Source: an uncultured bacterium (GTDB lineage Bacteria; Abyssobacteria; SURF-5). Taken from it: a stretch of DNA of 64,000 bases. Numbering within the stretch: position 1 is the first letter of the stretch; each line of letters starts with the position of its first letter. The translations under genes and the position numbers were made by a program. Below the pieces are notes generated by a model, which had not been told where the DNA came from, did no database searches, and saw only the letters and a list, made by a program, of their open reading frames with translations. Shown piece after piece: positions 563 to 12,849 of the stretch. The DNA is taken from the NCBI GenBank assembly GCA_964607485.1, contig CAZSKP010000021.1, positions 13,500 to 77,499 on the forward strand. The letters are read 5' to 3'.

Positions 563-1225
563 CTAGATTTCGTTTTCGCCGAGCAGAGTTCCGACCGCGT
601 CCCTCCGTATCGCTATACCCTTCACGCATCTGCACTGCGAACAATCCGCACAACGCTCGACGCCAAGCGACATCGCCTGCGAGCGTCTGTCCTCTTTGTC
701 GCGTGAGTCGAGATGCAGTTGCGCGAGTCTCACGAAAACGTACGGCCCGCCGAAGCCGTCATCGTTCCAATCGAAATGGGGACAACTGGACATGCAGCCG
801 TAACATTCCAGGCACCCAATCAATCGCTTGTAGACTTCCGCGACGGGCATGGCGGCCAGAGGCTGCTCCACGCCGGGCGAGACATAGAGACGCAGCGTCG
901 AGATTCTCCGGTCGATGACCGACCTGTCCACGACAAGGTCTCTGATGGGCGGCAGGTTCTTCAGGGGAGAAATCCGCATTCCCTCCGTCGCCCGGGTGAG
1001 ACAGGCAAGGCGCGGGCTGCCATTTACATCGACCGCACACTCCCCGCACTTCGCCGAGCGGCACCCGTACCTGAACGCCAGCGTCGAATCGTAGTTCTCG
1101 AAGATGTGCAGGAGAGCCTGCAGCACGGTCGCGCCCTCTTCCAGCAGAACGGAGTAACTATGCCCGATGCATTTCGCTTGCTCCGGGTCATAACGCTCGA
1201 CGAACACGTTTCCGTCCTGCATCAC
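563..1225 (-). CDS. succinate dehydrogenase/fumarate reductase family iron-sulfur subunit (SdhB/FrdB-like)
   Basis: FRYGCRSAKCGEC...LAC 2Fe-2S motif, PIRDLVVD, CLECYGCMSSCP and CADCSQCRC; start placed at GTG 1225/ATG 1222 overlapping the upstream TGA, so the 372 aa ORF is over-extended. Confidence 0.85.
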   Translation of the reverse strand: MMQDGNVFVERYDPEQAKCIGHSYSVLLEEGATVLQALLHIFENYDSTLAFRYGCRSAKCGECAVDVNGSPRLACLTRATEGMRISPLKNLPPIRDLVVDRSVIDRRISTLRLYVSPGVEQPLAAMPVAEVYKRLIGCLECYGCMSSCPHFDWNDDGFGGPYVFVRLAQLHLDSRDKEDRRSQAMSLGVERCADCSQCRCVKGIAIRRDAVGTLLGENEI

Positions 1226-3045
1226 GCATCTTCTCCGAGATTCAAACGAGAGTCGAGAATTTTCGCCTGCGTTTTTCGTGGGAGCCGGCTGAGGATGAAG
1301 AATTGGAGTCTCTCGCGATTGGGGTTCGGTCCCCCTTTGGTGCCGAGACCGAATTTCGACAACGCGACAGGTTCGGCCCTGACAGACAGCGCGTCGCCGT
1401 CCATTCGCACTATGACGTTTTGCAGCCATCTCTTGTCGTCGCGTTTGGGATGGTCGAGCCTGACGTGCCCGCCCCGCGATTCCTCGCGCGCCTTCGCGCT
1501 GCGCGCGACGACCTCGGCGACGATGAGCATCTTCTCGAGTTCCAGCGCGTCGCTCCATTCGGGATTGCAGTCTCGCCGGCTCGACACGCTCACGTCGTCG
1601 CGCTGCGTCACTATCTCCGAAATCTCTTCGAGCGCACGGTCGAGCCGCGCTGCATCCCGGATGGGCCCGACGTTTTTCCACATCGCTCTCTGGAGTCTTC
1701 GCACGAGTTCGATCGGCCTGTGCGCGCCCGACCTTCCCAGCAGGCCTTCCGCGTGCGAGCGCGACTGCTCAGCCGTATCGAAATCTGCCGCCGGCTGCTT
1801 GCGGTTCGCCGCCGCCTCGGCCGCGGCCTTGCCCGCGAGGCTTCCGAAGATAAACAGTTCTGCCAGAGACGTGGAGCCGATGCGGTTCGCTCCGTAGAGT
1901 CCGCCCTGCGCCTCGCCGACGGCGAAGAGGTTGTCAACGCCCTGCACTCGGCAATCGGTATCGACTCTCACTCCGCCCAATTGGTAGTGGCCCGTCGGAA
2001 AGACGTCCCAGGGAACCTGCCCGCGAGCGGCCTCCTCGCCGTACGCACGCCTGACGACCTCTGTCATCGACGGAAGCGTCCGCTTGAGGAATTCAAACAT
2101 CTTAGCCCCGATGATTCCCCGAAAATTCGGCGACAGGTCGAGCAGCATGCCCCCGTGTTCGGTGGCGCGGCCGCGTTCTTTTGCGAGCGACATCGCCGCC
2201 GCGACCCTCGCGCGGGTCATCGTCCGAATGCGGGGCAGTACTTCCTTGCCTTTCGCGTCCAGAAGTTTGCCGTAGGGTCCGGCGATGGCGGGCTCGCCGC
2301 AGACGATGCCGATCATCGAGGCGGGGTGGGTGAGTGCGAAGGGGATGAATTGCTGGTGCTCCATGTCGGTGAGCTCGGCGCCGGCCTCGAGCGCGAGCGC
2401 GTAGCCGTCGCCCGTGAGCGCGCGCGAGTTGCTCGTGTGCGGATAGAAAATCCAGCCAAGCCCGCCCGCGGCGAGAATCGTCTGCTTCGCCGCGATGGCC
2501 ACCATCTCGCCTGTGAGCCACCTGAGACAGAGCGCCCCTTCGACGGCTCGCCCGTTTCGGAGCAACTTCACGGCGAGCGTCTCGTCGAGCACATCAACTC
2601 CTGCGCGGGCGGCGGCCGCCCTGAGGGCAGTGCCGATAGGAATCGCCTCGGAGTAACCCGGCTGGGTGCGCGGCAGGCTGTGTCCGCCCAGCGGGGCGGG
2701 CAGGGGAGCCAATTCGCCGGAAGGTTTTCGGGCGAAGATAATGCCGAACCGTTCCATCAGCTCGGTGGCAAGGTGGGCGCGCTCGCAGTATTTCTCGACG
2801 AGCGTTTGATCGTTCAGGAATCCGCCTCCGACGATGATGTCGCGCATGAGGGCATCGGGGGAGTCCTTCGGCGAGATGTTCGGCCGCAGCACCAGTCCGG
2901 CGGCGATGCGGGTGTTGCCGCAGCCGTAGGGTCCCTTTGAGATAATCAGGGCGTTCGCACCCGCCTCGGCGGCCGCGACGGCGGCCACGATTCCGGCCCC
3001 GCCGGCGCCGATGCAGAGGACGTCGCATTCGATACGCCTGACCAT
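1222..3045 (-). CDS. SdhA/FrdA/TfrA-family FAD-binding flavoprotein subunit, substrate uncertain
   Basis: GAGGAG dinucleotide fold, LAAGG, TGDG, PTGHYQLGG, GANRIG, REESRGGH. Confidence 0.9.
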   Translation of the reverse strand: MVRRIECDVLCIGAGGAGIVAAVAAAEAGANALIISKGPYGCGNTRIAAGLVLRPNISPKDSPDALMRDIIVGGGFLNDQTLVEKYCERAHLATELMERFGIIFARKPSGELAPLPAPLGGHSLPRTQPGYSEAIPIGTALRAAAARAGVDVLDETLAVKLLRNGRAVEGALCLRWLTGEMVAIAAKQTILAAGGLGWIFYPHTSNSRALTGDGYALALEAGAELTDMEHQQFIPFALTHPASMIGIVCGEPAIAGPYGKLLDAKGKEVLPRIRTMTRARVAAAMSLAKERGRATEHGGMLLDLSPNFRGIIGAKMFEFLKRTLPSMTEVVRRAYGEEAARGQVPWDVFPTGHYQLGGVRVDTDCRVQGVDNLFAVGEAQGGLYGANRIGSTSLAELFIFGSLAGKAAAEAAANRKQPAADFDTAEQSRSHAEGLLGRSGAHRPIELVRRLQRAMWKNVGPIRDAARLDRALEEISEIVTQRDDVSVSSRRDCNPEWSDALELEKMLIVAEVVARSAKAREESRGGHVRLDHPKRDDKRWLQNVIVRMDGDALSVRAEPVALSKFGLGTKGGPNPNRERLQFFILSRLPRKTQAKILDSRLNLGEDA

Positions 3046-3052
3046 TGACGCG

Positions 3053-3394
3053 CTATTCTATCTCTATTTCCTTGACGGCGAGCTCCATCCCTTCAATCAC
3101 ATCCACGTCTTTCGATTCACATTCGGGACAGAGGAACTCGTAGTTCTGCACCATGAAAACGTGTTCGCAGGCTTTGCATCCCGCCTTGATGGGCACGCGC
3201 TCGACTTCAAGCGCCGCCCCCTCGGCGGGAGTGTCCTTCGTGACGAAGCCGAAGAAGAACGAAAGCTGGTCGGGCACTATGCCTCGAAGCTCGCCCGCGC
3301 GTATGCGGACCGTCCGGATTTTTGTCGCGCCGTTTCGCTGGGCCTCGGCGAGCACGATTCTCAGAATGCTTTGCGCTACCGACATCTCATGCAT
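3053..3394 (-). CDS. hypA: nickel metallochaperone HypA
   Basis: N-terminal MHE Ni site, CKAC and CPEC Zn finger, GMELAVKEIEIE end. Confidence 0.95.
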   Translation of the reverse strand: MHEMSVAQSILRIVLAEAQRNGATKIRTVRIRAGELRGIVPDQLSFFFGFVTKDTPAEGAALEVERVPIKAGCKACEHVFMVQNYEFLCPECESKDVDVIEGMELAVKEIEIE

Positions 3395-3413
3395 GAAACA
3401 CTCGCCCTCGGCG

Positions 3414-4481
3414 CTACATCTTTCCCTTTTCCTGCATTATCGAACTCATCAGGTCGCGGAAGTTGCGTTTCGGCTCGGCGAGCTCTTCCCTTCTTCTCAT
3501 CGATAGAGACTCCGTCGGGCACACCATGTTGCACAGCCCGCAGCCGAGACATTTCTCCGGATCGACTTCGGCGACCTCGTTGACCGTGAGCGCGCCGAAA
3601 TGGCACCTCTCGACGCACGCTTCGCACGCGGAGCACGTGTCGTAATCTATCTCGACGACGAAATGCGACGTGGCGACCGCGTGGGGCTTGTGCAGCCGTG
3701 TTATTCCACCCAGGATGCCGCAGCAACATCCGCAGCAGTTGCAGATGAAGTTGACGTGCTTCTGGGTGTTGTCGGAAAGATGCACGAGGCCTTCCTTTTC
3801 TGCCGTGTCGAGGACCCTGTAGGCCTCTTCCTTCGTAATCCTGCGGCCGAAGCCTCGTTCGACGACGTACCTTGCGAACGGGCCGAACTGGAGGCAGACG
3901 TCCTTCGGCCTGCCGCACGACTTGCCCAGCAGCTCCATCTCATGCCGGCAGTAGCACACCGAGAGCGCAAGCTCGTCCGCGTCCTGGATGAATTCCGAGA
4001 CGCGCTCGTACGGAAACACCTCGACGCCGCTGGGTATCTCTTTCTCCATGACGACGACGCGCGCCATCTGCGTTCTTGACGCAAAGAGGTCTTCGGCCCA
4101 GCCGGAGTGCCACATCGCATCGAAGAGGCCCGCCAGCTTCTTCGTTCTGTCGTTCACCTCGCCCTTCATAAACTGAAGCTCGAAGATGCCGGGCACGAGC
4201 GGGAACAGACTGTAGTAGTCCACCCCATCCTGCTTCCGGTGATAGGCAAGGCCCTTGTTGGCCATCGACTCGAGGATGGGCTTGAGCTCCGCCTCGTCGC
4301 GTCCGAGCGTCTCGCAGATGGAAGCGAGCGGGGAGGGGAGTATGGGCATGTCGGCCCCCACCTTTGCCTCGTCATCTGTGAAGAGTGTCTTCAGCAGCTT
4401 GACAAATTCCTCCGTCTTCGGTGCGCCGGCGGGGAATTGGTTAAGCTTGTCGATGAGTTGTTCATACACGTTTGCAGCCAC
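3414..4481 (-). CDS. Cys-rich 4Fe-4S dicluster protein with N-terminal wHTH-like region
   Basis: CYCR..C..C, GLVH, CNCCGCCC, then two ferredoxin motifs CSACEACVERC and CLGCGLCNMVCP. Confidence 0.85.
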   Translation of the reverse strand: MAANVYEQLIDKLNQFPAGAPKTEEFVKLLKTLFTDDEAKVGADMPILPSPLASICETLGRDEAELKPILESMANKGLAYHRKQDGVDYYSLFPLVPGIFELQFMKGEVNDRTKKLAGLFDAMWHSGWAEDLFASRTQMARVVVMEKEIPSGVEVFPYERVSEFIQDADELALSVCYCRHEMELLGKSCGRPKDVCLQFGPFARYVVERGFGRRITKEEAYRVLDTAEKEGLVHLSDNTQKHVNFICNCCGCCCGILGGITRLHKPHAVATSHFVVEIDYDTCSACEACVERCHFGALTVNEVAEVDPEKCLGCGLCNMVCPTESLSMRRREELAEPKRNFRDLMSSIMQEKGKM

Positions 4482-4524
4482 TGTTACCTCCTCTGAAGCT
4501 CCTCGCTGTTGCGTTTTCTCTTTG

Positions 4525-5211
4525 TTACTTCTTTCGGCCTTTCTTTGTTTGTTTCCCGCGCTTTGCTGCCAATTCTTTTGTCAACCATTCGAGCCACGCA
4601 TCGAGTCCTTCGCACGTGGTGCAGGACATCGGGAATATCGCCAGCTTCGGATTAATCTTCGAGGCATTCGTTCTGGCCTCGTCCATCTTGAAGTTCGTGT
4701 AGGGAAGAAGGTCCACCTTGTTGATGAGCATCGCGGAAGATTCGCGGAACATGAGCGGATATTTCAAGGGCTTCTCGTCGCCTTCGGTCACACTGAGCAT
4801 CATCACCTTGTGGTCCTCGCCGACCTTGAATTCGGCAGGGCAGACGAGATTGCCGACGTTTTCTATGATGAGGATGTCGATAGTCGAGCAATCGAGGTTT
4901 CCGAGCGCGCCTCTTACCATGTTGGCGTCGAGATGGCACGCGCTGCCGGTATTTATCTGGACGATGGGGACGTCGAATCCCTGAAGGCGGTCGGCGTCGC
5001 GGGTCGTTTCGATGTCACCCTCCACGATGCCCACGCGCACGCCTTGCGGCTTGAGTTTTTCGATGGTGCGTTCGAGCAGCGTCGTCTTGCCGGCTCCAGG
5101 CGAACTCATCAGGTTTATGGCAAGCACCTTGTTCGCGTCCAGCGTAGCCCGGATTTCCTCGGCGATTACATCGTTTGCTTTCAGAATGTTGTCGAGAACG
5201 GTTATCTTCAT
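4525..5211 (-). CDS. hypB: nickel incorporation GTPase HypB
   Basis: SSPGAGKTT P-loop, GSACH, ENVGNLVCPA, KPLKYP, NKVD. Confidence 0.95.
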   Translation of the reverse strand: MKITVLDNILKANDVIAEEIRATLDANKVLAINLMSSPGAGKTTLLERTIEKLKPQGVRVGIVEGDIETTRDADRLQGFDVPIVQINTGSACHLDANMVRGALGNLDCSTIDILIIENVGNLVCPAEFKVGEDHKVMMLSVTEGDEKPLKYPLMFRESSAMLINKVDLLPYTNFKMDEARTNASKINPKLAIFPMSCTTCEGLDAWLEWLTKELAAKRGKQTKKGRKK

Positions 5212-5233
5212 TTTCGTAAACTCCGCGTTGTTA

Positions 5234-6388
5234 TCATGTGAAGGCGCCTATGCCCGTGGCGAACCTGCCGATTACCAGCTTCAATATCTGGCTGGTTCCC
5301 TCGTACAGGCTGGCGACGCGCGCGTCGCGCATGTATCGCTCGACCGGATACTCGTTGGAGTAGCCGTAGCCGCCAAAGACCTGGATGGCTCGGTTGCCAC
5401 ACCTGAGCGCCGCCTCGGATGCGTAGAGCTTTGCGATGGAGGTCTCGCGCGTGTTTCCCTCGCCCTTGTTCTTCAGGTGTCCGGCCTGGAAAACAAGCAA
5501 CCGAGCGGCCTCGGTGTCGACGACCATGTCGGCGATCAGCTCCTGCACGAGCTGGAAGCCCGCGATGGGCCGTCCGAACGCCGTCCGTTCCTGCGAATAT
5601 TTCACGCTCGCGTCGATGCAGGCCTGGCAGATGCCCACGCAGCCCGCGGCGACGCTGTACCGCCCGTTGTCGAGCGCGCTCATGGCGACCTTGAAACCTT
5701 CGCCGACTTTGCCCAGCAGCGAGTCGTCGCTCACCTTCACGTCCTCAAGCGTGAGCGAGGAAGTGTCGGACGACTTGAGCCCCAGCTTGCCGTGTATCGG
5801 CTGCGACGAGAAGCCATCCGTGTCCGTATCGACCAGAAACGCGGCGATGCCCTTGTGCTTCAGTTTCTTGTCGGTCTGGGCGAAGATGATGGCGAGCTTT
5901 GCGACGCCGCCGTTGGATATCCACATCTTGTTTCCGTTCAGCACCCACTCGGCGCCTTTCTTCTTCGCCGAGGTGGAAAGGTTGGCGGCATCGCTTCCGG
6001 CGTCGGGCTCCGTGAGCCCGAAGCATCCGATAATCTCGCCGGAGGAGAGCTTCGGCAGGTATTTCTTCTTCTGCTCTTCGGTTCCCCATTTGAGTATGGT
6101 GAGCGCGACAAGCGAGGAGGTGACCGAGAGAACGGTGCGCACGGACGAGCAGGCGCGGCCGATTTCCTCGGTCACGAGGGCGTATGAAATGAAGTCCATG
6201 CCCGCACCGCCGTATTTTTCGGGTATCGCCGCGCCGAGGAATCCGAGGTCGCCCATCTTCTTGACGATCTCGGCGGGAAATCTTTCCTGCTCATCGTTCT
6301 CGCGCGCGACGGGCACTATTTCCTTTTCTGCGAAATCCCTCGCGGTTTGTCGCGCCGCCCTTTGTTCATCCGTCAACTCGATGTGCAT
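5234..6388 (-). CDS. acyl-CoA dehydrogenase
   Basis: FGLTEPDAGSD, LNGNKMWISNG, FGGYGY, LYEGTSQI; ATG 6388 has an AAGGA RBS. Confidence 0.95.
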   Translation of the reverse strand: MHIELTDEQRAARQTARDFAEKEIVPVARENDEQERFPAEIVKKMGDLGFLGAAIPEKYGGAGMDFISYALVTEEIGRACSSVRTVLSVTSSLVALTILKWGTEEQKKKYLPKLSSGEIIGCFGLTEPDAGSDAANLSTSAKKKGAEWVLNGNKMWISNGGVAKLAIIFAQTDKKLKHKGIAAFLVDTDTDGFSSQPIHGKLGLKSSDTSSLTLEDVKVSDDSLLGKVGEGFKVAMSALDNGRYSVAAGCVGICQACIDASVKYSQERTAFGRPIAGFQLVQELIADMVVDTEAARLLVFQAGHLKNKGEGNTRETSIAKLYASEAALRCGNRAIQVFGGYGYSNEYPVERYMRDARVASLYEGTSQILKLVIGRFATGIGAFT

Positions 6389-6435
6389 AGACAATTCCTT
6401 TCGTTGAGCGAATCGGGTCCTGCTCTGAGAGCTCG

Positions 6436-7842
6436 CTACCTGACGAGGAGTTTATCCACTATTCGCGTGAGCTGCCGGGCGTTGCGGCATTCATGAACTT
6501 CGTCACAATATGGCATGTACTCATACATAACGCTATCGCCCAGCCGCCAGGCCGGACGCGCCTCGGGGTTCAGCCATATGACGCGTTTCGCCTTCTCGGT
6601 CATGTCCTTGAACGCCCACACGCGGGGGTCGTTGCGATTGTTGCGCGCATCGCCCATTATAATCAACGTCGTCCTGGACGTGACGGACTCGAGAAACTCG
6701 TTGCGGAACCGGTGAAACGCGTAGCCGAAATTGCTGTGGCCGTTGTAATCGACGAGCCGCGAATGAAGCGCGAGCTCCAGCGCGGCGTTTATCTCATGTT
6801 CGGAGAACAACCGAGTGACCTCTCCGATTTCCGTCACGAACACGAACGTGCGGACCTTCGAGAAAAGCTCCTGAAGCGTGTACAGGAATTGGAGCATGAA
6901 GCGTGCGGCGTAGCTTACGGAATCCGAGATGTCGCAGAGCGCGAAAATCTGCGGCTTTTCCCGCCGCCGGTTCTTGTAGCAGAGCTCCATCGGGACTCCG
7001 CCGTACTGCATATTTTGCCGGATGACGCGCTTCACGTCTATCCGGCCGCGGGGCCTGCGCTTGTTGCGGAGCACGAGCCGGTCCTTCATTTTCCTGGCAA
7101 GCCGGGCGACGATATCCCGCATCAGTTCCATCTCACGCCTGGAGAGCTGATAGAAATTCTTGTTGAGGAGCTCCTCCTCCCTCAATCGCTCCATGTTGCT
7201 GAGCATATTCTTTTCGAGCTCGCGGCGCACGAATTCCCTGATGGCCTCAAACACACGCTGTATGCGTTGCTCGATAAATTGAATGAGCCTATCCACCTCC
7301 TCGGGCGAATAGCCCTGTCCGAGGAGTTCCTGCCTGAGTTTTTCGATCTCCTCGGCAAACAAATTCCAGCCGAGGCTGTCACGGATTTTCCTTGAAAAGA
7401 AGCCGACCTGCAGGGGATTGCTTATCTCGCTCAGGCCGGCAGCCATTCCCTGCTCCATCATTGTCATCTGAAAATCGCCTCCGAGCTGCCACTGGAACAG
7501 ATTGGCGAGATTCTCGAAGAGTTCGCGGTTTTCTTCGAGGAACGAATCGAGGAACTCCTGCATCGTGACCGAGCCGAACGGAAACAAGCCCAGGTCGGTT
7601 TCGTCGTCCTCGCCGGCGGGCGGTTTCGAAAGTGAGGTGAAGTAGAGTTCGAAAAGCTTTTCGAATATGGGAATGTCGGCGGATTTCTTCACGAGCGTGG
7701 AGCGCAGCGCGGCCTTGAACGTCGGCTTGTGCTCCAGCCCAAGTATTTCCAAGGCGCGGAAGCAGTCGATGTTCTCTGAGAGCGCCACTCTCACGCCTGA
7801 ACTGCGGAGAGCGTCGATGAATTCCAGAATTTTTTCGTCCAT
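6436..7842 (-). CDS. VWA domain protein, CoxE-like
   Basis: MIDAS motif CDISDS, GDARNN, WLNPE, ECRNARQL. Confidence 0.9.
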   Translation of the reverse strand: MDEKILEFIDALRSSGVRVALSENIDCFRALEILGLEHKPTFKAALRSTLVKKSADIPIFEKLFELYFTSLSKPPAGEDDETDLGLFPFGSVTMQEFLDSFLEENRELFENLANLFQWQLGGDFQMTMMEQGMAAGLSEISNPLQVGFFSRKIRDSLGWNLFAEEIEKLRQELLGQGYSPEEVDRLIQFIEQRIQRVFEAIREFVRRELEKNMLSNMERLREEELLNKNFYQLSRREMELMRDIVARLARKMKDRLVLRNKRRPRGRIDVKRVIRQNMQYGGVPMELCYKNRRREKPQIFALCDISDSVSYAARFMLQFLYTLQELFSKVRTFVFVTEIGEVTRLFSEHEINAALELALHSRLVDYNGHSNFGYAFHRFRNEFLESVTSRTTLIIMGDARNNRNDPRVWAFKDMTEKAKRVIWLNPEARPAWRLGDSVMYEYMPYCDEVHECRNARQLTRIVDKLLVR

Positions 7843-7855
7843 AGAGCGGGTCGCG

Positions 7856-8782
7856 TCAGTTGAGTTTTTCGTCCGCGGCTGAGAGCAAGCTCTGCAGATT
7901 GGACCTGACCTTTTTTATGTCTCCCTCGTACTTCAGAAACAGGTTGAGCGTGGACTTCACCGTTTCCTCGTCGAGCGTGTCGATGTTCAGGATGGTAAGC
8001 GCGCGAGCCCAGTCGAGCGTTTCGCTGATGCTCGGAAGCTTCTTCAGGTCCACCTTGCGCACTTTCTGTATCACGTCGATCACCCGGGTTGCGAGCGTCT
8101 GGCTTATGCCGGGAACCTTGAGCCTCACAATCTCGGTCTCCTGCTCGGCCGACGGAAAATCGATGAACAGGTGCAGGCAGCGTCTCTTGAGTGCGTCGGT
8201 CATCTCACGAGTGTTGTTGCTCGTGAGAACGACGTGGGGGATGTGTTTCGCCTTGAGGGTGCCCAGCTCCGGTACGCTGACCTGAAAGTCGCTGAGCACC
8301 TCGAGGAGGAACGCCTCGAACTCCGGGTCGGCCTTGTCAACCTCGTCGATGAGAAGGACCGCCCTTTCTTCGGAGAGGATGGCTCGAAGCAGGGGGCGGG
8401 GGAGTATGAACTCTTCCGAGAAGAAGACGTCCTCCTGTTTATCTATCTTATCGACGGCCTCGCTCAGGCTCTTGCAGTCGCTCAGCACCTCATTGATTTT
8501 TTCCTTGAGTATCTGCGTGTAGAGAAGCTGTTTGGCATATTCCCACTCGTACAGCGCCTTGCTCTCATCCAGCCCCTCGTAACACTGCATCCGAATCAGC
8601 CTCATGCCCGTCGCCTGAGCCCACACGCCGGCAAGGCTCGTTTTCCCCACGCCGGCGGGACCTTCGACGAGGATCGGCTTTTGCATCCGCTCCGCGAGGT
8701 AGACGACGGTCGAGATTTCCTTGCTGCAGATGTAGTCCTGCTTCTTGAATTCTCGGGCGATTTCCTCTATCGAACCGAACAT
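7856..8782 (-). CDS. MoxR-family AAA+ ATPase, CoxD-like
   Basis: EGPAGVGKT, QCYEGLDE, LLIDEVDK, DALKRRC, PSISETLDW. Confidence 0.93.
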   Translation of the reverse strand: MFGSIEEIAREFKKQDYICSKEISTVVYLAERMQKPILVEGPAGVGKTSLAGVWAQATGMRLIRMQCYEGLDESKALYEWEYAKQLLYTQILKEKINEVLSDCKSLSEAVDKIDKQEDVFFSEEFILPRPLLRAILSEERAVLLIDEVDKADPEFEAFLLEVLSDFQVSVPELGTLKAKHIPHVVLTSNNTREMTDALKRRCLHLFIDFPSAEQETEIVRLKVPGISQTLATRVIDVIQKVRKVDLKKLPSISETLDWARALTILNIDTLDEETVKSTLNLFLKYEGDIKKVRSNLQSLLSAADEKLN

Positions 8783-8786
8783 GCCA

Positions 8787-9380
8787 TCAGCCCTTCTTTC
8801 TGGTTGTTTTGCTCCTGGTCGAATTCTTCTTGAGCTCGCTTGCGAGCAGATCGTTTGCCCATTCGATTCTGAGTCTTTGTGTTGCGATACCGAAGTCCAC
8901 GATCTTTAGCTTATACGAGTTCAGCCCGCGTTCGCGCATTTCCTCGCGCAACTGTTCGTACTCCGTTACCTTCTGCTCTGCTCCCTCTATCTGACGCCTG
9001 AGCTTGGCCAATCGTTCGCGTTTCGGGAGATGCTCGAAGAAATTGCACTTCATGAGGAAGCTGTACTGCATGAAGAAGTCGCACTTGACCGGGTCGATTT
9101 CGTCCTCGGAGCCTTTGAGCCAATGAAAAAACTCCTCGCGGCCGCGGTCGGTGATATGGTAGAGGTTCTTGTTCGGGGATTTCTGCTGGCGGACGGTTTC
9201 CTTGCGGACGAGCTTCTCCTTCTCAAGCTGGGTCAGCACGGGATAAAGCTGTCCGTCGTTGAGACCGTTCCTGGCGACGAAGGGCGCAAATATCTTCTTT
9301 ATCCGATACCCGTGCGCCGGGCACTGCATCAACACCCCGAGGATGGCGTGCTTCGTGCTCATTTTCGGTCGGAATTTCAT
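8787..9380 (-). CDS. PadR-family transcriptional regulator
   Basis: HAILGVL..HGYRI..GQLYPVLTQLEKE..YHITDRG; alternative start at 9362. Confidence 0.9.
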   Translation of the reverse strand: MKFRPKMSTKHAILGVLMQCPAHGYRIKKIFAPFVARNGLNDGQLYPVLTQLEKEKLVRKETVRQQKSPNKNLYHITDRGREEFFHWLKGSEDEIDPVKCDFFMQYSFLMKCNFFEHLPKRERLAKLRRQIEGAEQKVTEYEQLREEMRERGLNSYKLKIVDFGIATQRLRIEWANDLLASELKKNSTRSKTTRKKG

Positions 9381-9391
9381 GAAAGGCGCTC

Positions 9392-9455
9392 GTACCTATC
9401 GTTAAGGTATCTTACAGTTAGGTACTATCCTATCAGATTGCCCAACGGAAGTCAA
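9392..9455 (-). promoter_or_regulatory. sigma70 promoter with tandem palindromic operator, probable PadR autoregulation site
   Basis: minus strand TTGACT(9455-9450)-17 bp-TAGGAT(9432-9427); two overlapping TAYCT-N7-AGGTA boxes at 9393-9409 and 9408-9424. Confidence 0.6.
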
Positions 9456-10012: not shown

Positions 10013-10441
10013 TCAGATGCTTATCTGTTCGGGTTTCTGCGCCTCGTGTGGATGGCTTGGGCCGGCGTACACTCGGAGCTTCCTGGTCATCGCCCTCCCG
10101 AGACGGTTGCGCGGAAGCATTCCCTTCACGGCTTTATAGACGATGCGCTCGGGGAACTTCTCCTGCACTTCCCGGTAGGTGGCGGTCTTCAGTCCGCCCG
10201 GCCATCCGGTGTGGCGGCGATACAACTTCTGCAACGGCTTCTTGCCGGTCACCCTGACCTTTTCCGCATTGATTACGATGACGTGGTCGCCGAGGTTCAC
10301 GTGGGGGGAATACTCCGGCTTATGCTTTCCCCGCAACAGCTTTGCGGCTTCGCTGGCCAGTCGTCCGAGCACCTTCCCTTCGGCGTCGATCAGGTACCAC
10401 TTGCTATCTATGTCGCCCGGCTTGGGCGAATACGTACGCAT
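10013..10441 (-). CDS. rplM: 50S ribosomal protein L13
   Basis: [36 protein letters not shown]. Confidence 0.99.
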
Positions 10442-10497
10442 CTGCTTTCAAACCTCCAGACATGAGTTCTTCGTTTTGACGCATGGAAATTCAAGAT

Positions 10498-10526
10498 AAT
10501 GTAGCAGAAAACAGCGAAACTGTCAA
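10498..10526 (-). promoter_or_regulatory. sigma70 promoter of rplM-rpsI
   Basis: minus strand TTGACA-17 bp-TACATT with extended TG. Confidence 0.7.
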
Positions 10527-10649
10527 GTCAGGCAGGCGTCTTGCGTGGGAAGAGGGGAAAGCGGTGACATAGAGACCGCCCGCTTTTGGCGACGGAGTCA
10601 CCCTATACGTCACAGCGGTACCCCTCCGTCGGAACGTCGATGGGGACTC

Positions 10650-10850
10650 TTATCCGGTTTCCTTGCGAGACCTTGGTCTTGCTCGGTTCCTTCCTTTCTT
10701 GTCCGCCGATTTCGTTTCGAGCGAACCGGCCGTCGGCCCGGAGGCCAATAGCGCTTCCAGTTCCCGGTTCGTTACACCGTCGTTCTGAGCGAAGCGCTTC
10801 GGCGGGACGATCCCCAGCCTGAGCTTCGTGCGTGTGAGTTTGTCGCCCAT
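10650..10850 (-). CDS. small basic hypothetical protein (66 aa)
   Basis: ATG begins 1 bp after the stop of the ExeA-like gene, suggesting translational coupling; no recognised domain. Confidence 0.5.
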   Translation of the reverse strand: MGDKLTRTKLRLGIVPPKRFAQNDGVTNRELEALLASGPTAGSLETKSADKKGRNRARPRSRKETG

Positions 10851-10851
10851 G

Positions 10852-11697
10852 CTAGATGCTGTTCTCTATGCAGCGCTCAACGACCTCTCGCGTCACCCTC
10901 GATTCGCCCCGCATGGACGCCTCGAGGAGCGAGTTGTCGGCAAGCTTGCTTACCTCCCGGCAGATTCCTGCTGAATGCGCGTGTATGACGTCGAAGGTTT
11001 CTTGGTCGAACAACTCTTCGGTAGAGCCGGCGACCATCAGCCTGAACTTGATGTACTGCTCGGTTTCCGGGCGCGACATGGGCATCAGATATGAGGCCAT
11101 CGCGATTCTGCCCCGAAGGGAGCTGTACCTCTTGTGGCGAAGGCGTCGCAGAAAAGTTTCCTCGGCGAGCATGATGACGGTGCACAGCTTTTCCTGAGGG
11201 GTTTCCATGTTCGTGAGCGCGCGTATCATGTGAAGCTGGTCCGACAACAGGAAGTGCGACTCGTCAACGATCAACACCACGCGCTGTCCCTTGCCGTACG
11301 CCGACATCAGGAAGGAATGGATGCTTTCGAGCAACGTCTGCGTGTTTTCTCTCCCGGAGGGACGGGGAACCTCCAGCTCGTCGAGTATGCATCCGAGAAG
11401 CCCCATCTTGCTCATTCCCGGATTAGCCAGAACAACCGCCGGAATGAATTCGCTCTCGCTCAATGCGCTGAGCAGCATCTGGGCGAGGAGGGTTTTCCCC
11501 GTGCCGCTGCGTCCCCACACCAGCCCGAGCGCCTTATGATGCCGTGCACACATCATCATCCGCACGAACGCCGTCTCGTGAGCCTCGGTCCTGTAGAAGA
11601 ACTCGGGATTCACGCTGTCGCTGAACGGGACTCGCGTCAAGCCGAAGTGTTCGCAATAGTCAAGCGCCATATCCAACCGCCTTGCTGCTACTTCCAT
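10852..11697 (-). CDS. ExeA/GspA-like AAA ATPase without a membrane or peptidoglycan-binding tail
   Basis: YCEHFGL..PF, GRSGTGKT Walker A, LIVDESH Walker B, GICREV..DNSL; AGGAG RBS. Confidence 0.88.
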   Translation of the reverse strand: MEVAARRLDMALDYCEHFGLTRVPFSDSVNPEFFYRTEAHETAFVRMMMCARHHKALGLVWGRSGTGKTLLAQMLLSALSESEFIPAVVLANPGMSKMGLLGCILDELEVPRPSGRENTQTLLESIHSFLMSAYGKGQRVVLIVDESHFLLSDQLHMIRALTNMETPQEKLCTVIMLAEETFLRRLRHKRYSSLRGRIAMASYLMPMSRPETEQYIKFRLMVAGSTEELFDQETFDVIHAHSAGICREVSKLADNSLLEASMRGESRVTREVVERCIENSI

Positions 11698-11739
11698 ACA
11701 TAAATCTCCTGTTTGTTTGAGAAACCCCGACCCAATTAC

Positions 11740-12849
11740 CTATTCGGCTGTTGCCGCTGCCAATACGGAGCAGCGCTCAACAAACACGCCAAAACCCGTC
11801 CCCTCCATTCGAGGGCGGGGTGATGCCGTTCCCTTCTCCAACAGCGTGCGCGCGAGTCTTCTCACCGCCGCAGAGGCCCTCGACTGAGGGTATCCGACCG
11901 AAAACGGTACGCGCTCGTCCACCGCGCGCCGCACATGCGAGTCCTCCCAGATATGCCCCAGTTCAAGCAACGAGCGGGCAAGAAAGCGTCGCGTGCAATC
12001 GGAGATGCGCCCGAGGGTCGCCGCTCCCTCGCGCGCGCTTCTTACGCGGTTCGCCACCACGCCTATACGGCAATATGGGCTGCGCTGAAATGTGAGTTTG
12101 ATCAGGGCATAGGCGTCTGCGATCGCGGTCGTTTCGGGTGTCGTGACGACAAGCACGAAGTCGGAGGAAACCAAGAAGTCGAGCACGCTGCCGCCGACGC
12201 CCGCCGCTGTGTCGATGAGGATCACGTCGTACCGCGATTCAAGTTTCCTCAACCCGGCCAGCAGCGTCTGACGCCTGTGCGCCGGCAGGTTCGCCATCTC
12301 GAATATCCCCGACGAGCCGGGCACGATGTCGGGCCCACCGGGCATCCTTGCTATTATCTCGTCGATCGCGCATTCTCCCGAGATGACATGCGTGAGCGTG
12401 CGGTCGGTCGTCAGCCCGGCCAGCAGATGGAGGTTCGCCACCCCGAGGTCGGCATCCATCACCGCCGTCCGCAGGCCCTCTCTTGCCAGCTCCACGGAGA
12501 GGTTCAACGCGACGTTGCTCTTTCCGACGCCTCCCTTGCCGCTGGTTATCGCAATCAACTTGCCGGCGTTCAGGCCGTTCCGGCCTACGCCGTTCGAGCC
12601 CCCGGTCCATCCCGATGGGTCGGCGAGCATCTTGGACAGGTGGGTCCTGAGCGCAGTGGGTGCAAGGCCGTCCTTCAGCAGGCGATTCGCCGCGGCCAAT
12701 ATCTTCAGGTCGCTCGTGGAATACGTGCGGGGAATCTCCAGGCGCGAGAGCGAGAGAAAATCCTGACAGTGCATCTCCAAGAATCTGAATCGGGCAGGCT
12801 CAATGCCCAGCAGCTTGGCTGCCTCGTGTGTCTTCAAGCGATTGTTCAC
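11740..12849 (-). CDS. MinD/FlhG-family ATPase with N-terminal MerR-like HTH
   Basis: LKTHEAAKLLGI..RTYSTSDL HTH; ITSGKGGVGKSN, DADLGVAN, IDTAAG, TTPETTAIADAYALIK. Confidence 0.88.
   Translation of the reverse strand: MNNRLKTHEAAKLLGIEPARFRFLEMHCQDFLSLSRLEIPRTYSTSDLKILAAANRLLKDGLAPTALRTHLSKMLADPSGWTGGSNGVGRNGLNAGKLIAITSGKGGVGKSNVALNLSVELAREGLRTAVMDADLGVANLHLLAGLTTDRTLTHVISGECAIDEIIARMPGGPDIVPGSSGIFEMANLPAHRRQTLLAGLRKLESRYDVILIDTAAGVGGSVLDFLVSSDFVLVVTTPETTAIADAYALIKLTFQRSPYCRIGVVANRVRSAREGAATLGRISDCTRRFLARSLLELGHIWEDSHVRRAVDERVPFSVGYPQSRASAAVRRLARTLLEKGTASPRPRMEGTGFGVFVERCSVLAAATAE

Follow-up and report, generated by a model that had tools for sequence, protein, structure and literature searches.

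A HypA/HypB operon around a cysteine-rich Fe-S protein, a candidate nickel client, in a bacterium without a recognisable hydrogenase

Results

Gene content of the operon

The stretch of DNA analysed here, which we call the window, comprises 64,000 nucleotides from an uncultured bacterium (Abyssobacteria; SURF-5) and lies on contig C21 of genome G000, whose assembly spans 4.70 Mb in 93 contigs and is 97.5% complete. Within its first 9.5 kb lies an operon in which the genes of the nickel chaperones HypB and HypA flank that of a 355-residue iron-sulphur (Fe-S) protein, hereafter FeS355 (Table 1). An earlier note on the window had described nine co-directional, tightly packed genes, and the open reading frame (ORF) calls together with Pfam and NCBIfam searches place all nine on the minus strand, with spacings that run from a 4-base overlap up to 43 bases. 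The sdhB-like start overlaps the sdhA-like stop by 4 bases, and the gaps measure 7 bases for hypA-sdhA, 19 for FeS355-hypA, 43 for hypB-FeS355, 22 for acd-hypB and 13 for moxR-vwa. Comparison of the proteins and of their loci in other genomes indicates that FeS355 is most likely the nickel client of the two chaperones, rather than the SdhAB-like enzyme or the acyl-CoA dehydrogenase (ACD) encoded in the same operon.

Table 1. Genes and sequence features of the operon, with positions in the window
Feature	Position	Strand	Size and evidence
SdhB-like Fe-S subunit	563-1225	minus	220 aa; PF13085 91 bits; TIGR00384 150 bits (cut-off 88)
SdhA/FrdA-like FAD flavoprotein, divergent substrate pocket	1222-3045	minus	607 aa; PF00890 + PF02910
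HypA, nickel metallochaperone	3053-3394	minus	113 aa; PF01155 120.8 bits (cut-off 28.9); TIGR00100 101.6 (cut-off 88.1)
FeS355, Fe-S protein, proposed nickel client	3414-4481	minus	355 aa; Pfam only at residues 276-329
HypB, GTPase-type nickel chaperone	4525-5211	minus	228 aa; TIGR00073 268.6 bits (cut-off 121.2)
Short-chain-type acyl-CoA dehydrogenase (ACD)	5234-6394	minus	386 aa; PF02771, PF02770, PF00441
CoxE-type VWA protein, partner of MoxR ATPase	6436-7842	minus	468 aa; PF05762 VWA_CoxE 133.7 bits (cut-off 26.4)
MoxR-type AAA+ ATPase	7856-8782	minus	308 aa; PF07728 AAA_5
PadR-family transcriptional regulator	8787-9380	minus	197 aa; PF03551 62 bits (cut-off 27) + PF10400 C-terminal domain
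Promoter-like site TTGACT-17-TAGGAT	9455-9427	minus	consensus scan, 9/12 matches, TG before the -10 hexamer
Inverted repeat GTACCTA-N20-TAGGTAC, candidate PadR operator	9425-9392	minus	read directly from the sequence; function inferred
Strong terminator with 13-bp stem, 3' of rpsI	9542-9513		separates the operon from rpsI-rplM

The Fe-S protein FeS355 and its family

FeS355 consists of a winged-helix-like N-terminus, a Cys-rich core and a ferredoxin domain for two [4Fe-4S] clusters. Pfam recognised the ferredoxin motifs alone, and residues 1-270 gave no Pfam match. Alignments of 15 and of 85 sequences leave C176, C178, R179, H180, C189, C196, H234, N238, C247, N248, C249, C250, C252 and C254 invariant, along with two CxxCxxCxxxC motifs; nine Cys and two His outside these two ferredoxin motifs are invariant in the 85 family sequences. 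The family is large. At least 6873 homologues of similar length scored E <= 0.001 among 8000 candidates, annotated as '4Fe-4S binding protein' or alike, and residues 1-270 by themselves retrieved 2709, 1356 and 264 representatives of 50% identity clusters at E <= 1e-3, 1e-10 and 1e-30, respectively. Members occur in Chloroflexota, Thermodesulfobacteriota, Bacillota, Actinomycetota and candidate phyla, often with many copies per genome.

Longer proteins were matched as well (1086 at E <= 0.001). Among the 120 of these that were listed, nearly all are 845-924 aa long, with the matching N-terminus followed by PF14691 and PF07992. This is the architecture of IsrA, the putative isoprene reductase of Acetobacterium wieringae ISORED-2 (Kronen et al., 2023; PMC10134865). 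Residues 5-300 of FeS355 align with the N-terminus of one such protein, of 893 aa and from Clostridium intestinale, at 31% identity (E 1e-40), and both Cys motifs line up, CYC with CAC and CNCCGC with CNCCGC. By sequence comparison, the first ~300 residues of FeS355 are homologous to the N-terminal Cys-rich domain of the ~890-aa IsrA-type oxidoreductases. FeS355 itself has no fused NfnB-like FAD/NAD(P)H module (PF14691 + PF07992), and the operon contains no gene for one.

As described, IsrA begins with an unassigned region of ~270 aa with two CxC motifs (Cys180-182 and Cys254-256), which is followed by ferredoxin motifs and the NfnB-like module. Besides IsrA, the isr operon codes for two HypA, a single HypB and a '4Fe-4S ferredoxin' of 350 aa, the first ~270 of which can be aligned with IsrA (PMC10134865). 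The paper also reports that the A. wieringae genome lacks a [NiFe]-hydrogenase, that HypA occurs within 5 genes of 73% of 988 IsrA homologues, and that HypAB are proposed to insert nickel into IsrA. In a preprint of 2026, isoprene is reported to induce hypA 373-fold and hypB 585-fold in Pelotomaculum (bioRxiv 10.64898/2026.02.25.708027). Our literature search on isr returned only these two sources and one companion preprint. The system of the window, which the earlier note had put forward as undescribed, is therefore not categorically new, since for IsrA it was already proposed in 2023 that HypAB serve a Cys-rich oxidoreductase where the genome encodes no hydrogenase.

An AlphaFold2 model of FeS355 built on the 85-row alignment reached a mean predicted local distance difference test score of 93.8 and a predicted template modelling score of 0.89. 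Foldseek found no PDB match to it at E <= 0.001. In a wide fold search the best Z was 6.6: the region of about residues 14-134 matched winged-helix regulators at Z 5.4-6.6, and that of about residues 255-335 matched ferredoxin domains. No solved fold matched the Cys-rich core, which was barely probed because the other domains filled the match lists, and for this reason we make no claim of a new fold. Residues 1-270 retrieved from the ESM Atlas only 'hypothetical' or 'ferredoxin' clusters without Pfam families. A predicted complex of FeS355 with HypA scored 0.00 against a mark of 0.32 with no control runs and counts neither way.

Some further members of the family may be mentioned here. G000 contains 11 matches in all, and none except the operon FeS355 adjoins hypA or hypB. 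The other copies include a tandem pair (C17:85109-87392), a convergent pair (C20:5-2066) and genes at C13:8898-9950, C4:112436-113482, C6:87387-88442 and C31:9491-10498, and an NMO-type flavoenzyme, radical SAM proteins, TetR regulators and a GMC oxidoreductase are found among their neighbours. A Syntrophales metagenome-assembled genome (MAG) has six paralogues in 14 kb (L061:2722-16441), and L062 and L069 have three each. In P0122, a 986-aa metagenome protein, an FeS355-like region (92% of the query, 33% identity) is fused to the malic-enzyme domains PF00390 and PF03949, a different partner from that of the IsrA type.

The chaperones and the nickel enzymes of the genome

HypA and HypB are textbook chaperones of hydrogenase and urease. 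Both operon proteins exceed the curated cut-offs of their families (Table 1). The N-terminal MHE of HypA is its nickel site and four cysteines form its zinc site; the corresponding residues M1, H2, E3, C73, C76, C89 and C92 (MHE and CxxC...CPxC) are invariant in 19 FeS355-linked HypAs. The HypB translation retains the P-loop, NKxD and CH/ENVGNLVCP motifs, which we take to have their usual meaning. In a quick tree of 34 HypB rows, all 23 FeS355-linked HypBs, from the window's family and Chloroflexota, form one clade with that of genome G016 (support by the Shimodaira-Hasegawa-like approximate likelihood ratio test, SH-aLRT, 97), in a small sample with long outgroup branches. The linked HypBs are 59-64% identical to the window HypB. 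Those of nine hydrogenase-carrying genomes fall outside the clade, and the five of them that were compared by tblastn are 41-49% identical to the window HypB.

HypA and HypB each have a single match in the genome, both in the operon. The question had been raised whether this is the only pair and serves a hydrogenase encoded elsewhere: it is the only pair, but no hydrogenase large subunit (PF00374), HypC (PF01455), HypD (PF01924) or urease alpha subunit was matched in the 97.5%-complete genome. HypF (TIGR00143) gave only two matches, far under the cut-off (best 33.8 bits versus 466); HypE was not searched. The window itself had been described as free of NiFe subunits, hypCDEF, urease and carbon monoxide dehydrogenase (CODH), and none of these families was detected in the 35 of its 44 called ORFs that were scanned (those of at least 120 aa beyond 9.5 kb; NCBIfam, E <= 1e-15), in agreement with that description. 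A group-4 hydrogenase hidden among the three Complex1_49kDa matches of the genome was also considered. A CxxC motif marks group-4 hydrogenases and none of the three has one anywhere; this candidate was ruled out, and the matches are read as NuoD because of the missing motif.

Part of the assembly is missing, and a [NiFe]-hydrogenase with its hypCDEF genes might lie in the unassembled 2.5%, in which case HypAB would be ordinary hydrogenase maturases. The fragmentation into 93 contigs allows for this, and in one genome of the same family, G003, PF00374 matches both ends of a 485-aa ORF. However, five separate markers are absent from G000 (large subunit, HypC, HypD, HypF and the group-4 CxxC), and eight of the nine HypA-positive genomes of the family, G000 included, have no PF00374 match. 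We regard this explanation as highly improbable.

The genome does encode other nickel enzymes. On contig C60 (C60:3654-11088), genes for MTHFR, a 660-aa CODH, a 210-aa polyferredoxin, a 725-aa acetyl-CoA synthase (ACS) and CdhD were found, and no CbiA/CooC-family gene lies on this 20-kb contig. HypAB might therefore serve CODH and ACS, their position beside FeS355 being incidental. A locus from a Dehalococcoidia MAG lends this some colour, as hypB-hypA-FeS355 is followed there by a convergent, opposite-strand gene for a 668-aa CODH-family protein (L024:1717-5941). It is the only such case among the neighbours of the 16 loci (of 80) that were scanned, whereas HypA adjoins an FeS355-family gene in all 21 of the 80 loci that have HypA. 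Moreover, G000 has three CooC-like ATPases that combine a deviant Walker A with a CxC motif, two in tandem (C12:96008-97666) and one at C14:86879-87655, which we take to be candidate chaperones for CODH/ACS, and we know of no role of HypAB as CODH maturases. The CODH/ACS of A. wieringae is reported to have its own AcsF, which is used there as an argument against HypAB serving it (PMC10134865). Altogether, a CODH/ACS client appears improbable.

Conservation of the HypA-FeS355 linkage

The earlier note had proposed checking the gene linkage across genomes, and it is conserved: HypA and FeS355 are adjacent in 8 of 9 same-family relatives, and a HypA gene adjoins an FeS355-family gene in 21 of the 80 best-matching genome loci. 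Our sample of 41 genomes includes ten of the window's own family, G000 and nine relatives from seven other genera. The FeS355 family is present in all ten, with 9-22 matches each, and HypA in nine, the exception being G002, which is 77% complete. In each of the eight relatives that have it, HypA lies within ~120 bases of the FeS355 orthologue. An SdhA orthologue follows directly beyond HypA in seven relatives and in G009 at the contig start. HypB adjoins FeS355 in seven and, in G007, is on a contig also holding VWA. The VWA orthologue itself is on the same contig in six relatives and on another in G007, and was not found in G005 or G002. PF00374 was matched in one of the ten genomes (G003). 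Loci L011, L012, L014 and L015 show the gene order of the window; because their HypBs are identical to those of G003, G009, G001 and G005, they are the same genomes and not extra evidence. Between vwa and acd, L014 (G001) has an extra 303-aa ORF (L014:1690-2601) with no NCBIfam match at E <= 1e-15, and an equally large gap occurs at this place in L012 (G009) and in G004.

Beyond the family, we ran profile searches within the flanks of the 80 best genome loci for FeS355. HypA is present in 21 and HypB in 14, and in all 21 HypA is directly beside an FeS355-family gene. Thirteen of the 21 come from a group of Dehalococcoidia/Chloroflexota, in the order hypB-hypA-FeS355, and five from the clade of the window; the other three are single loci from Symbiobacterium, from another Dehalococcoidia lineage and from a deltaproteobacterial MAG. 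This leaves 16 loci outside the family with HypA beside FeS355, ten of them with HypB. SdhA, SdhB, MoxR and VWA accompany FeS355 at none of the 80 loci outside the window's clade; ACD-like matches occur there in L042, L052 and L056, none beside FeS355, and the single one among the 16 HypA loci (L052) is distant. Scanning the neighbours at 16 of the 80 loci revealed CoA transferases, enoyl-CoA hydratase, 3-hydroxyacyl-CoA dehydrogenases, methylmalonyl-CoA mutase and thiolase. Flavoenzymes of the NMO and OYE types, molybdopterin oxidoreductases and FMN reductases were also among them, and in one locus the CODH mentioned above.

In a quick maximum-likelihood tree of 97 family members (SH-aLRT support only), the HypA-linked label needs six changes, at least four of which are forced by well-supported branches. 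Shuffled labels need ~19 on average, and none of 500 shuffles was as low as six. One HypA-adjacent paralogue, in L038, is labelled unlinked in this count, so that linkage is undercounted by one row. The window's clade of six has an SH-aLRT of 100.

Among the 41 genomes, 23 have HypA over the cut-off, and 13 of these 23 have a PF00374 match. All ten HypA-positive, PF00374-negative genomes, which represent three lineages rather than ten independent cases, carry 7-22 FeS355-family matches; they are eight genomes of the window's family together with G016 and G028. A non-hydrogenase client, as the earlier note had suggested, is thus the best reading, since the hypAB pair is the only one, no hydrogenase, HypC or HypD was matched and the linkage is conserved. 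The middle Fe-S protein had been treated as an accessory of the enzyme system. It is the likely client instead: outside the family hypA travels with FeS355 and never with SdhAB. Because HypA adjoins a family gene in 21 of 80 loci as well as in the same-family genomes, and because the linked HypBs fall into a separate clade, FeS355 stands out as the most likely recipient of nickel.

The SdhAB-like enzyme and the acyl-CoA dehydrogenase

Only part of the earlier description of an SdhAB-like enzyme stood. The SdhB-like subunit, with a 2Fe-2S domain and two further cluster motifs, exceeds the TIGR00384 cut-off, whereas the SdhA-like protein stays below every NCBIfam equivalog cut-off (TfrA 332/718, TIGR01812 321/567) and lacks both the His for covalent flavin adenine dinucleotide (FAD) and the HPT motif. 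Aligned with Escherichia coli FrdA and Mycobacterium smegmatis Sdh, it has Thr/Asn (NT) at the covalent-FAD His position, IPFA in place of HPT and a capping loop CGEPAxAGP, with the active-site Arg, His and Arg kept; the roles of these residues are those established for E. coli FrdA. Four orthologues show the same pattern, as does a paralogue of 47% identity on contig C2. Non-covalent FAD suggests a reductase rather than a succinate oxidiser. The SdhB-like subunit covers only positions 5-212 of the 488-position TfrB model (score 164/385) and has no CCG/HdrB-like extension. The CCG half of TfrB takes electrons from thiols, and because this half is absent here the SdhB-like subunit would need another electron partner. 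As for ACD, it is of the ordinary short-chain type (best solved relative rat short-chain acyl-CoA dehydrogenase, 1jqi, E 2e-110) and reaches no substrate-specific NCBIfam equivalog cut-off (AcrC 425/640, Acd 391/470).

The paralogous pair on contig C2 (C2:54694-57038, L097) carries NT, LPFA and CGEPAMAGP and adjoins neither HypAB nor FeS355. It is flanked by zinc ADH, glyoxalase, CMD and SDR genes, and a GntR gene and a methylmalonyl-CoA mutase-like gene run divergently from it.

It had been suggested earlier that the SdhAB-like enzyme or ACD receives the nickel, which would make FeS355 their electron carrier. The short distances of hypA to sdhA and of acd to hypB, the order kept in the same-family genomes and the unusual SdhA-like pocket are in keeping with this idea. 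Nevertheless, the 16 HypA-FeS355 loci outside the family do without SdhA and SdhB, and without ACD apart from the L052 match; the C2 pair shows the same substitutions away from any chaperone gene; and neither protein family has, to our knowledge, a nickel member. We therefore consider it very improbable that either is the client.

The MoxR-VWA pair

Pairs of a MoxR ATPase and a VWA protein act in metal insertion, as do CoxD/CoxE of aerobic CO dehydrogenase, NorQ/NorD, CbbQ/CbbO and RavA/ViaA. The best NCBIfam match of the operon MoxR is MadB_ATPase (of the NF047784/NF047783 pair; 345 bits, cut-off 475), and the VWA protein scores 166 bits with the MadC model (cut-off 600). We did not find the meaning of 'Mad' in the literature, where the only MadB paper concerns a lanthipeptide dehydratase. 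MoxR has more than 8000 homologues at E <= 1e-40, with 70-72% identity in Binatia and Deltaproteobacteria. In 61 of 80 metagenome loci with homologues of 64-72% identity, a VWA gene stands beside MoxR, and in none of the 80 does ACD, HypA/B, FeS355 or SdhA/B occur within 8 kb of it. The flanking genes are unrelated in the 12 loci examined (DAO oxidoreductase, BFN nuclease, TPR, TANGO2). The pair had been seen as the operon's own cofactor-insertion machinery; it proves to be a widespread, conserved two-gene module with unrelated neighbours elsewhere, which makes a role as dedicated chaperone of the operon's enzyme less probable. From these comparisons, it looks like a general module recruited into the operon in one bacterial family.

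A bifunctional-nuclease-domain (BFN) gene lies 3' of MoxR-VWA in 4 of the 12 loci (L113, L171, L178 and L185, at ~10400-11900), with a TPR_21 gene past it in L171 and L178; in L167, TPR_21 occurs but BFN does not. Ahead of the pair, three of the 12 loci have a gene for a DAO-type FAD oxidoreductase and two have TANGO2.

Promoter region and neighbouring genes

The perfect 7-bp inverted repeat with its 20-base spacer starts two bases past the -10 hexamer, between the promoter-like site and padR, and overlaps the predicted padR transcription start. By its position it is plausible as the PadR operator. A convergent response regulator gene lies downstream of the operon, and the remaining window has a housekeeping character (MutS, MiaB, PcrA, GlmU, IlvD, LeuC, FolC, two-component systems). 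Directly after rplM (10852-12849), a gene resembling the XrtA/PEP-CTERM-associated ATPase (145 bits, cut-off 324) adjoins that of a MinD-like ATPase with an N-terminal extension of ~95 aa.

Discussion

We propose the following scenario for the operon. PadR would control the expression of a soluble redox enzyme and may sense its substrate or a related compound. HypB, as the GTPase, and HypA, through its MHE site, would insert nickel at the invariant Cys/His site of FeS355 (CxC ... CxCCxCxC), which would mirror the loading of the large subunit by HypAB in hydrogenase makers. The two [4Fe-4S] clusters of FeS355 could then connect the nickel site with the SdhB-like subunit, through its three clusters, and with the non-covalent FAD of the SdhA-like one, so that FeS355 would probably be the catalytic subunit in a complex of three proteins. 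ACD would provide or take away the CoA-ester partner when an organic acid or acyl-CoA undergoes a C=C / C-C redox reaction, which probably runs in the reductive direction, and the MoxR-VWA pair, as a recruited general module, may help assembly. As a whole, with nickel in the Cys/His site and FeS355 wired to the flavoenzyme, we judge this scenario to have about an even chance of being right.

Several observations weigh against it. HypA is missing from the examined flank of 59 of the 80 family loci, G000 has 11 family members for one hypAB, and HypA is absent from G010 and G032 (96% and 94% complete), each with a single family member. Homologues of the stand-alone 350-aa ferredoxin are reported to show no association with HypA or HypB (PMC10134865); our 21 of 80 come from the loci most similar to the query, and for this reason one result should not be set directly against the other. 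Both sources still present nickel in IsrA as a hypothesis (PMC10134865; 10.64898/2026.02.25.708027), and our link to isr draws on the architecture, the positions of the motifs and the homology to proteins built in the same way, not on the A. wieringae proteins themselves. Since SdhAB and ACD accompany FeS355 in one family only, the FeS355-SdhAB complex has the operon structure as its sole basis. Lastly, the PF00374 match of G003 and the CODH gene of L024 have to be set on this side.

FeS355 could accordingly be a plain electron-transfer ferredoxin or a winged-helix redox sensor, and the adjacency to HypAB would reflect co-regulation, another metal or another client. The loci and genomes without HypA, the many copies per hypAB and the published lack of HypA/HypB association for homologues of the stand-alone ferredoxin (PMC10134865) all favour such a role, as does the fact that winged-helix regulators and ferredoxin domains are the only solved folds matched. 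However, the nine invariant Cys and two His outside the ferredoxin motifs are more than a plain carrier needs, and more than 1000 proteins carry the domain in fusion with an NfnB-like FAD/NAD(P)H module, as expected for a catalytic end-point. In addition, HypA adjacency is seen again in separate branches of the family tree, the linked HypBs have their own clade, and the winged-helix Z-scores lie in a range that the fold tool calls common. A carrier or sensor is therefore, in our opinion, unlikely.

We put forward, as a tentative extension, that FeS355 and its relatives form a large, hitherto unrecognised class of nickel-dependent Fe-S enzymes matured by a dedicated HypA/HypB lineage. Members are often numerous in a genome and often stand beside acyl-CoA and enoate-type genes, which fits a substrate-diversified reductase family. 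The class would be a third kind of HypAB client after hydrogenase and urease; it would widen the list of nickel enzymes and explain orphan hypAB genes in hydrogenase-less anaerobes. In the operon of the window, such a module would plug into an SdhAB-like flavoenzyme for C=C / C-C redox chemistry beyond that of ordinary flavoenzymes. The operon is also a compact experimental case, with the stand-alone module, both chaperones and defined redox partners, in which the nickel hypothesis for isoprene reductase could be tested directly.

Comparison with known systems

The operon shares features with four characterised or proposed systems. As in the HypA/HypB system of hydrogenase and urease (Helicobacter), the family cut-offs are passed and the MHE, zinc-Cys and HypB motifs are kept. 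Unlike that system, no large subunit, HypC, HypD or urease alpha subunit was matched here and no HypF over its cut-off, and the FeS355-linked HypBs form a clade apart from the HypBs of hydrogenase genomes. The order of a MoxR AAA+ ATPase followed by a VWA_CoxE-domain protein recalls CoxD/CoxE; however, no genes of the molybdenum CODH (coxLMS) occur among the operon genes or the scanned window ORFs, and the pair belongs to a very conserved subfamily whose neighbours elsewhere are unrelated to the operon, which also sets it apart from the other MoxR-VWA pairs.

The flavoenzyme is closest to TfrAB and to the soluble SdhAB/FrdAB enzymes. TfrA and the N-terminal half of TfrB are its best NCBIfam matches, and it has the FAD domain, the C-terminal domain, the 2Fe-2S domain with two cluster motifs and no membrane anchor gene. 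It differs in scoring far under both Tfr cut-offs, in having no HdrB-like CCG half and in the replacement of the covalent-FAD His, HPT and capping-loop motifs.

The nearest parallel to the operon as a whole is isr. Both combine hypA and hypB in one operon with a protein that has a ~270-aa Cys-rich domain and ferredoxin motifs, in a genome with CODH/ACS but no [NiFe]-hydrogenase; FeS355 matches the 350-aa ferredoxin of isr in length and layout, and it aligns with the N-termini of proteins of IsrA architecture. The differences are that only the stand-alone form is found here, with no ~900-aa IsrA carrying the NfnB-like module, that there is one HypA instead of two, and that the partners are the SdhAB-like flavoenzyme, ACD, MoxR-VWA and PadR. 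The host belongs to another phylum, and nothing points to isoprene. What is new in the present operon is the stand-alone form flanked by hypB and hypA and its pairing with an SdhAB-like enzyme and ACD; around it, the 9-22 family matches per genome, the hypB-hypA-FeS355 triad that recurs in Chloroflexota and the separate clade of linked HypBs are new as well.

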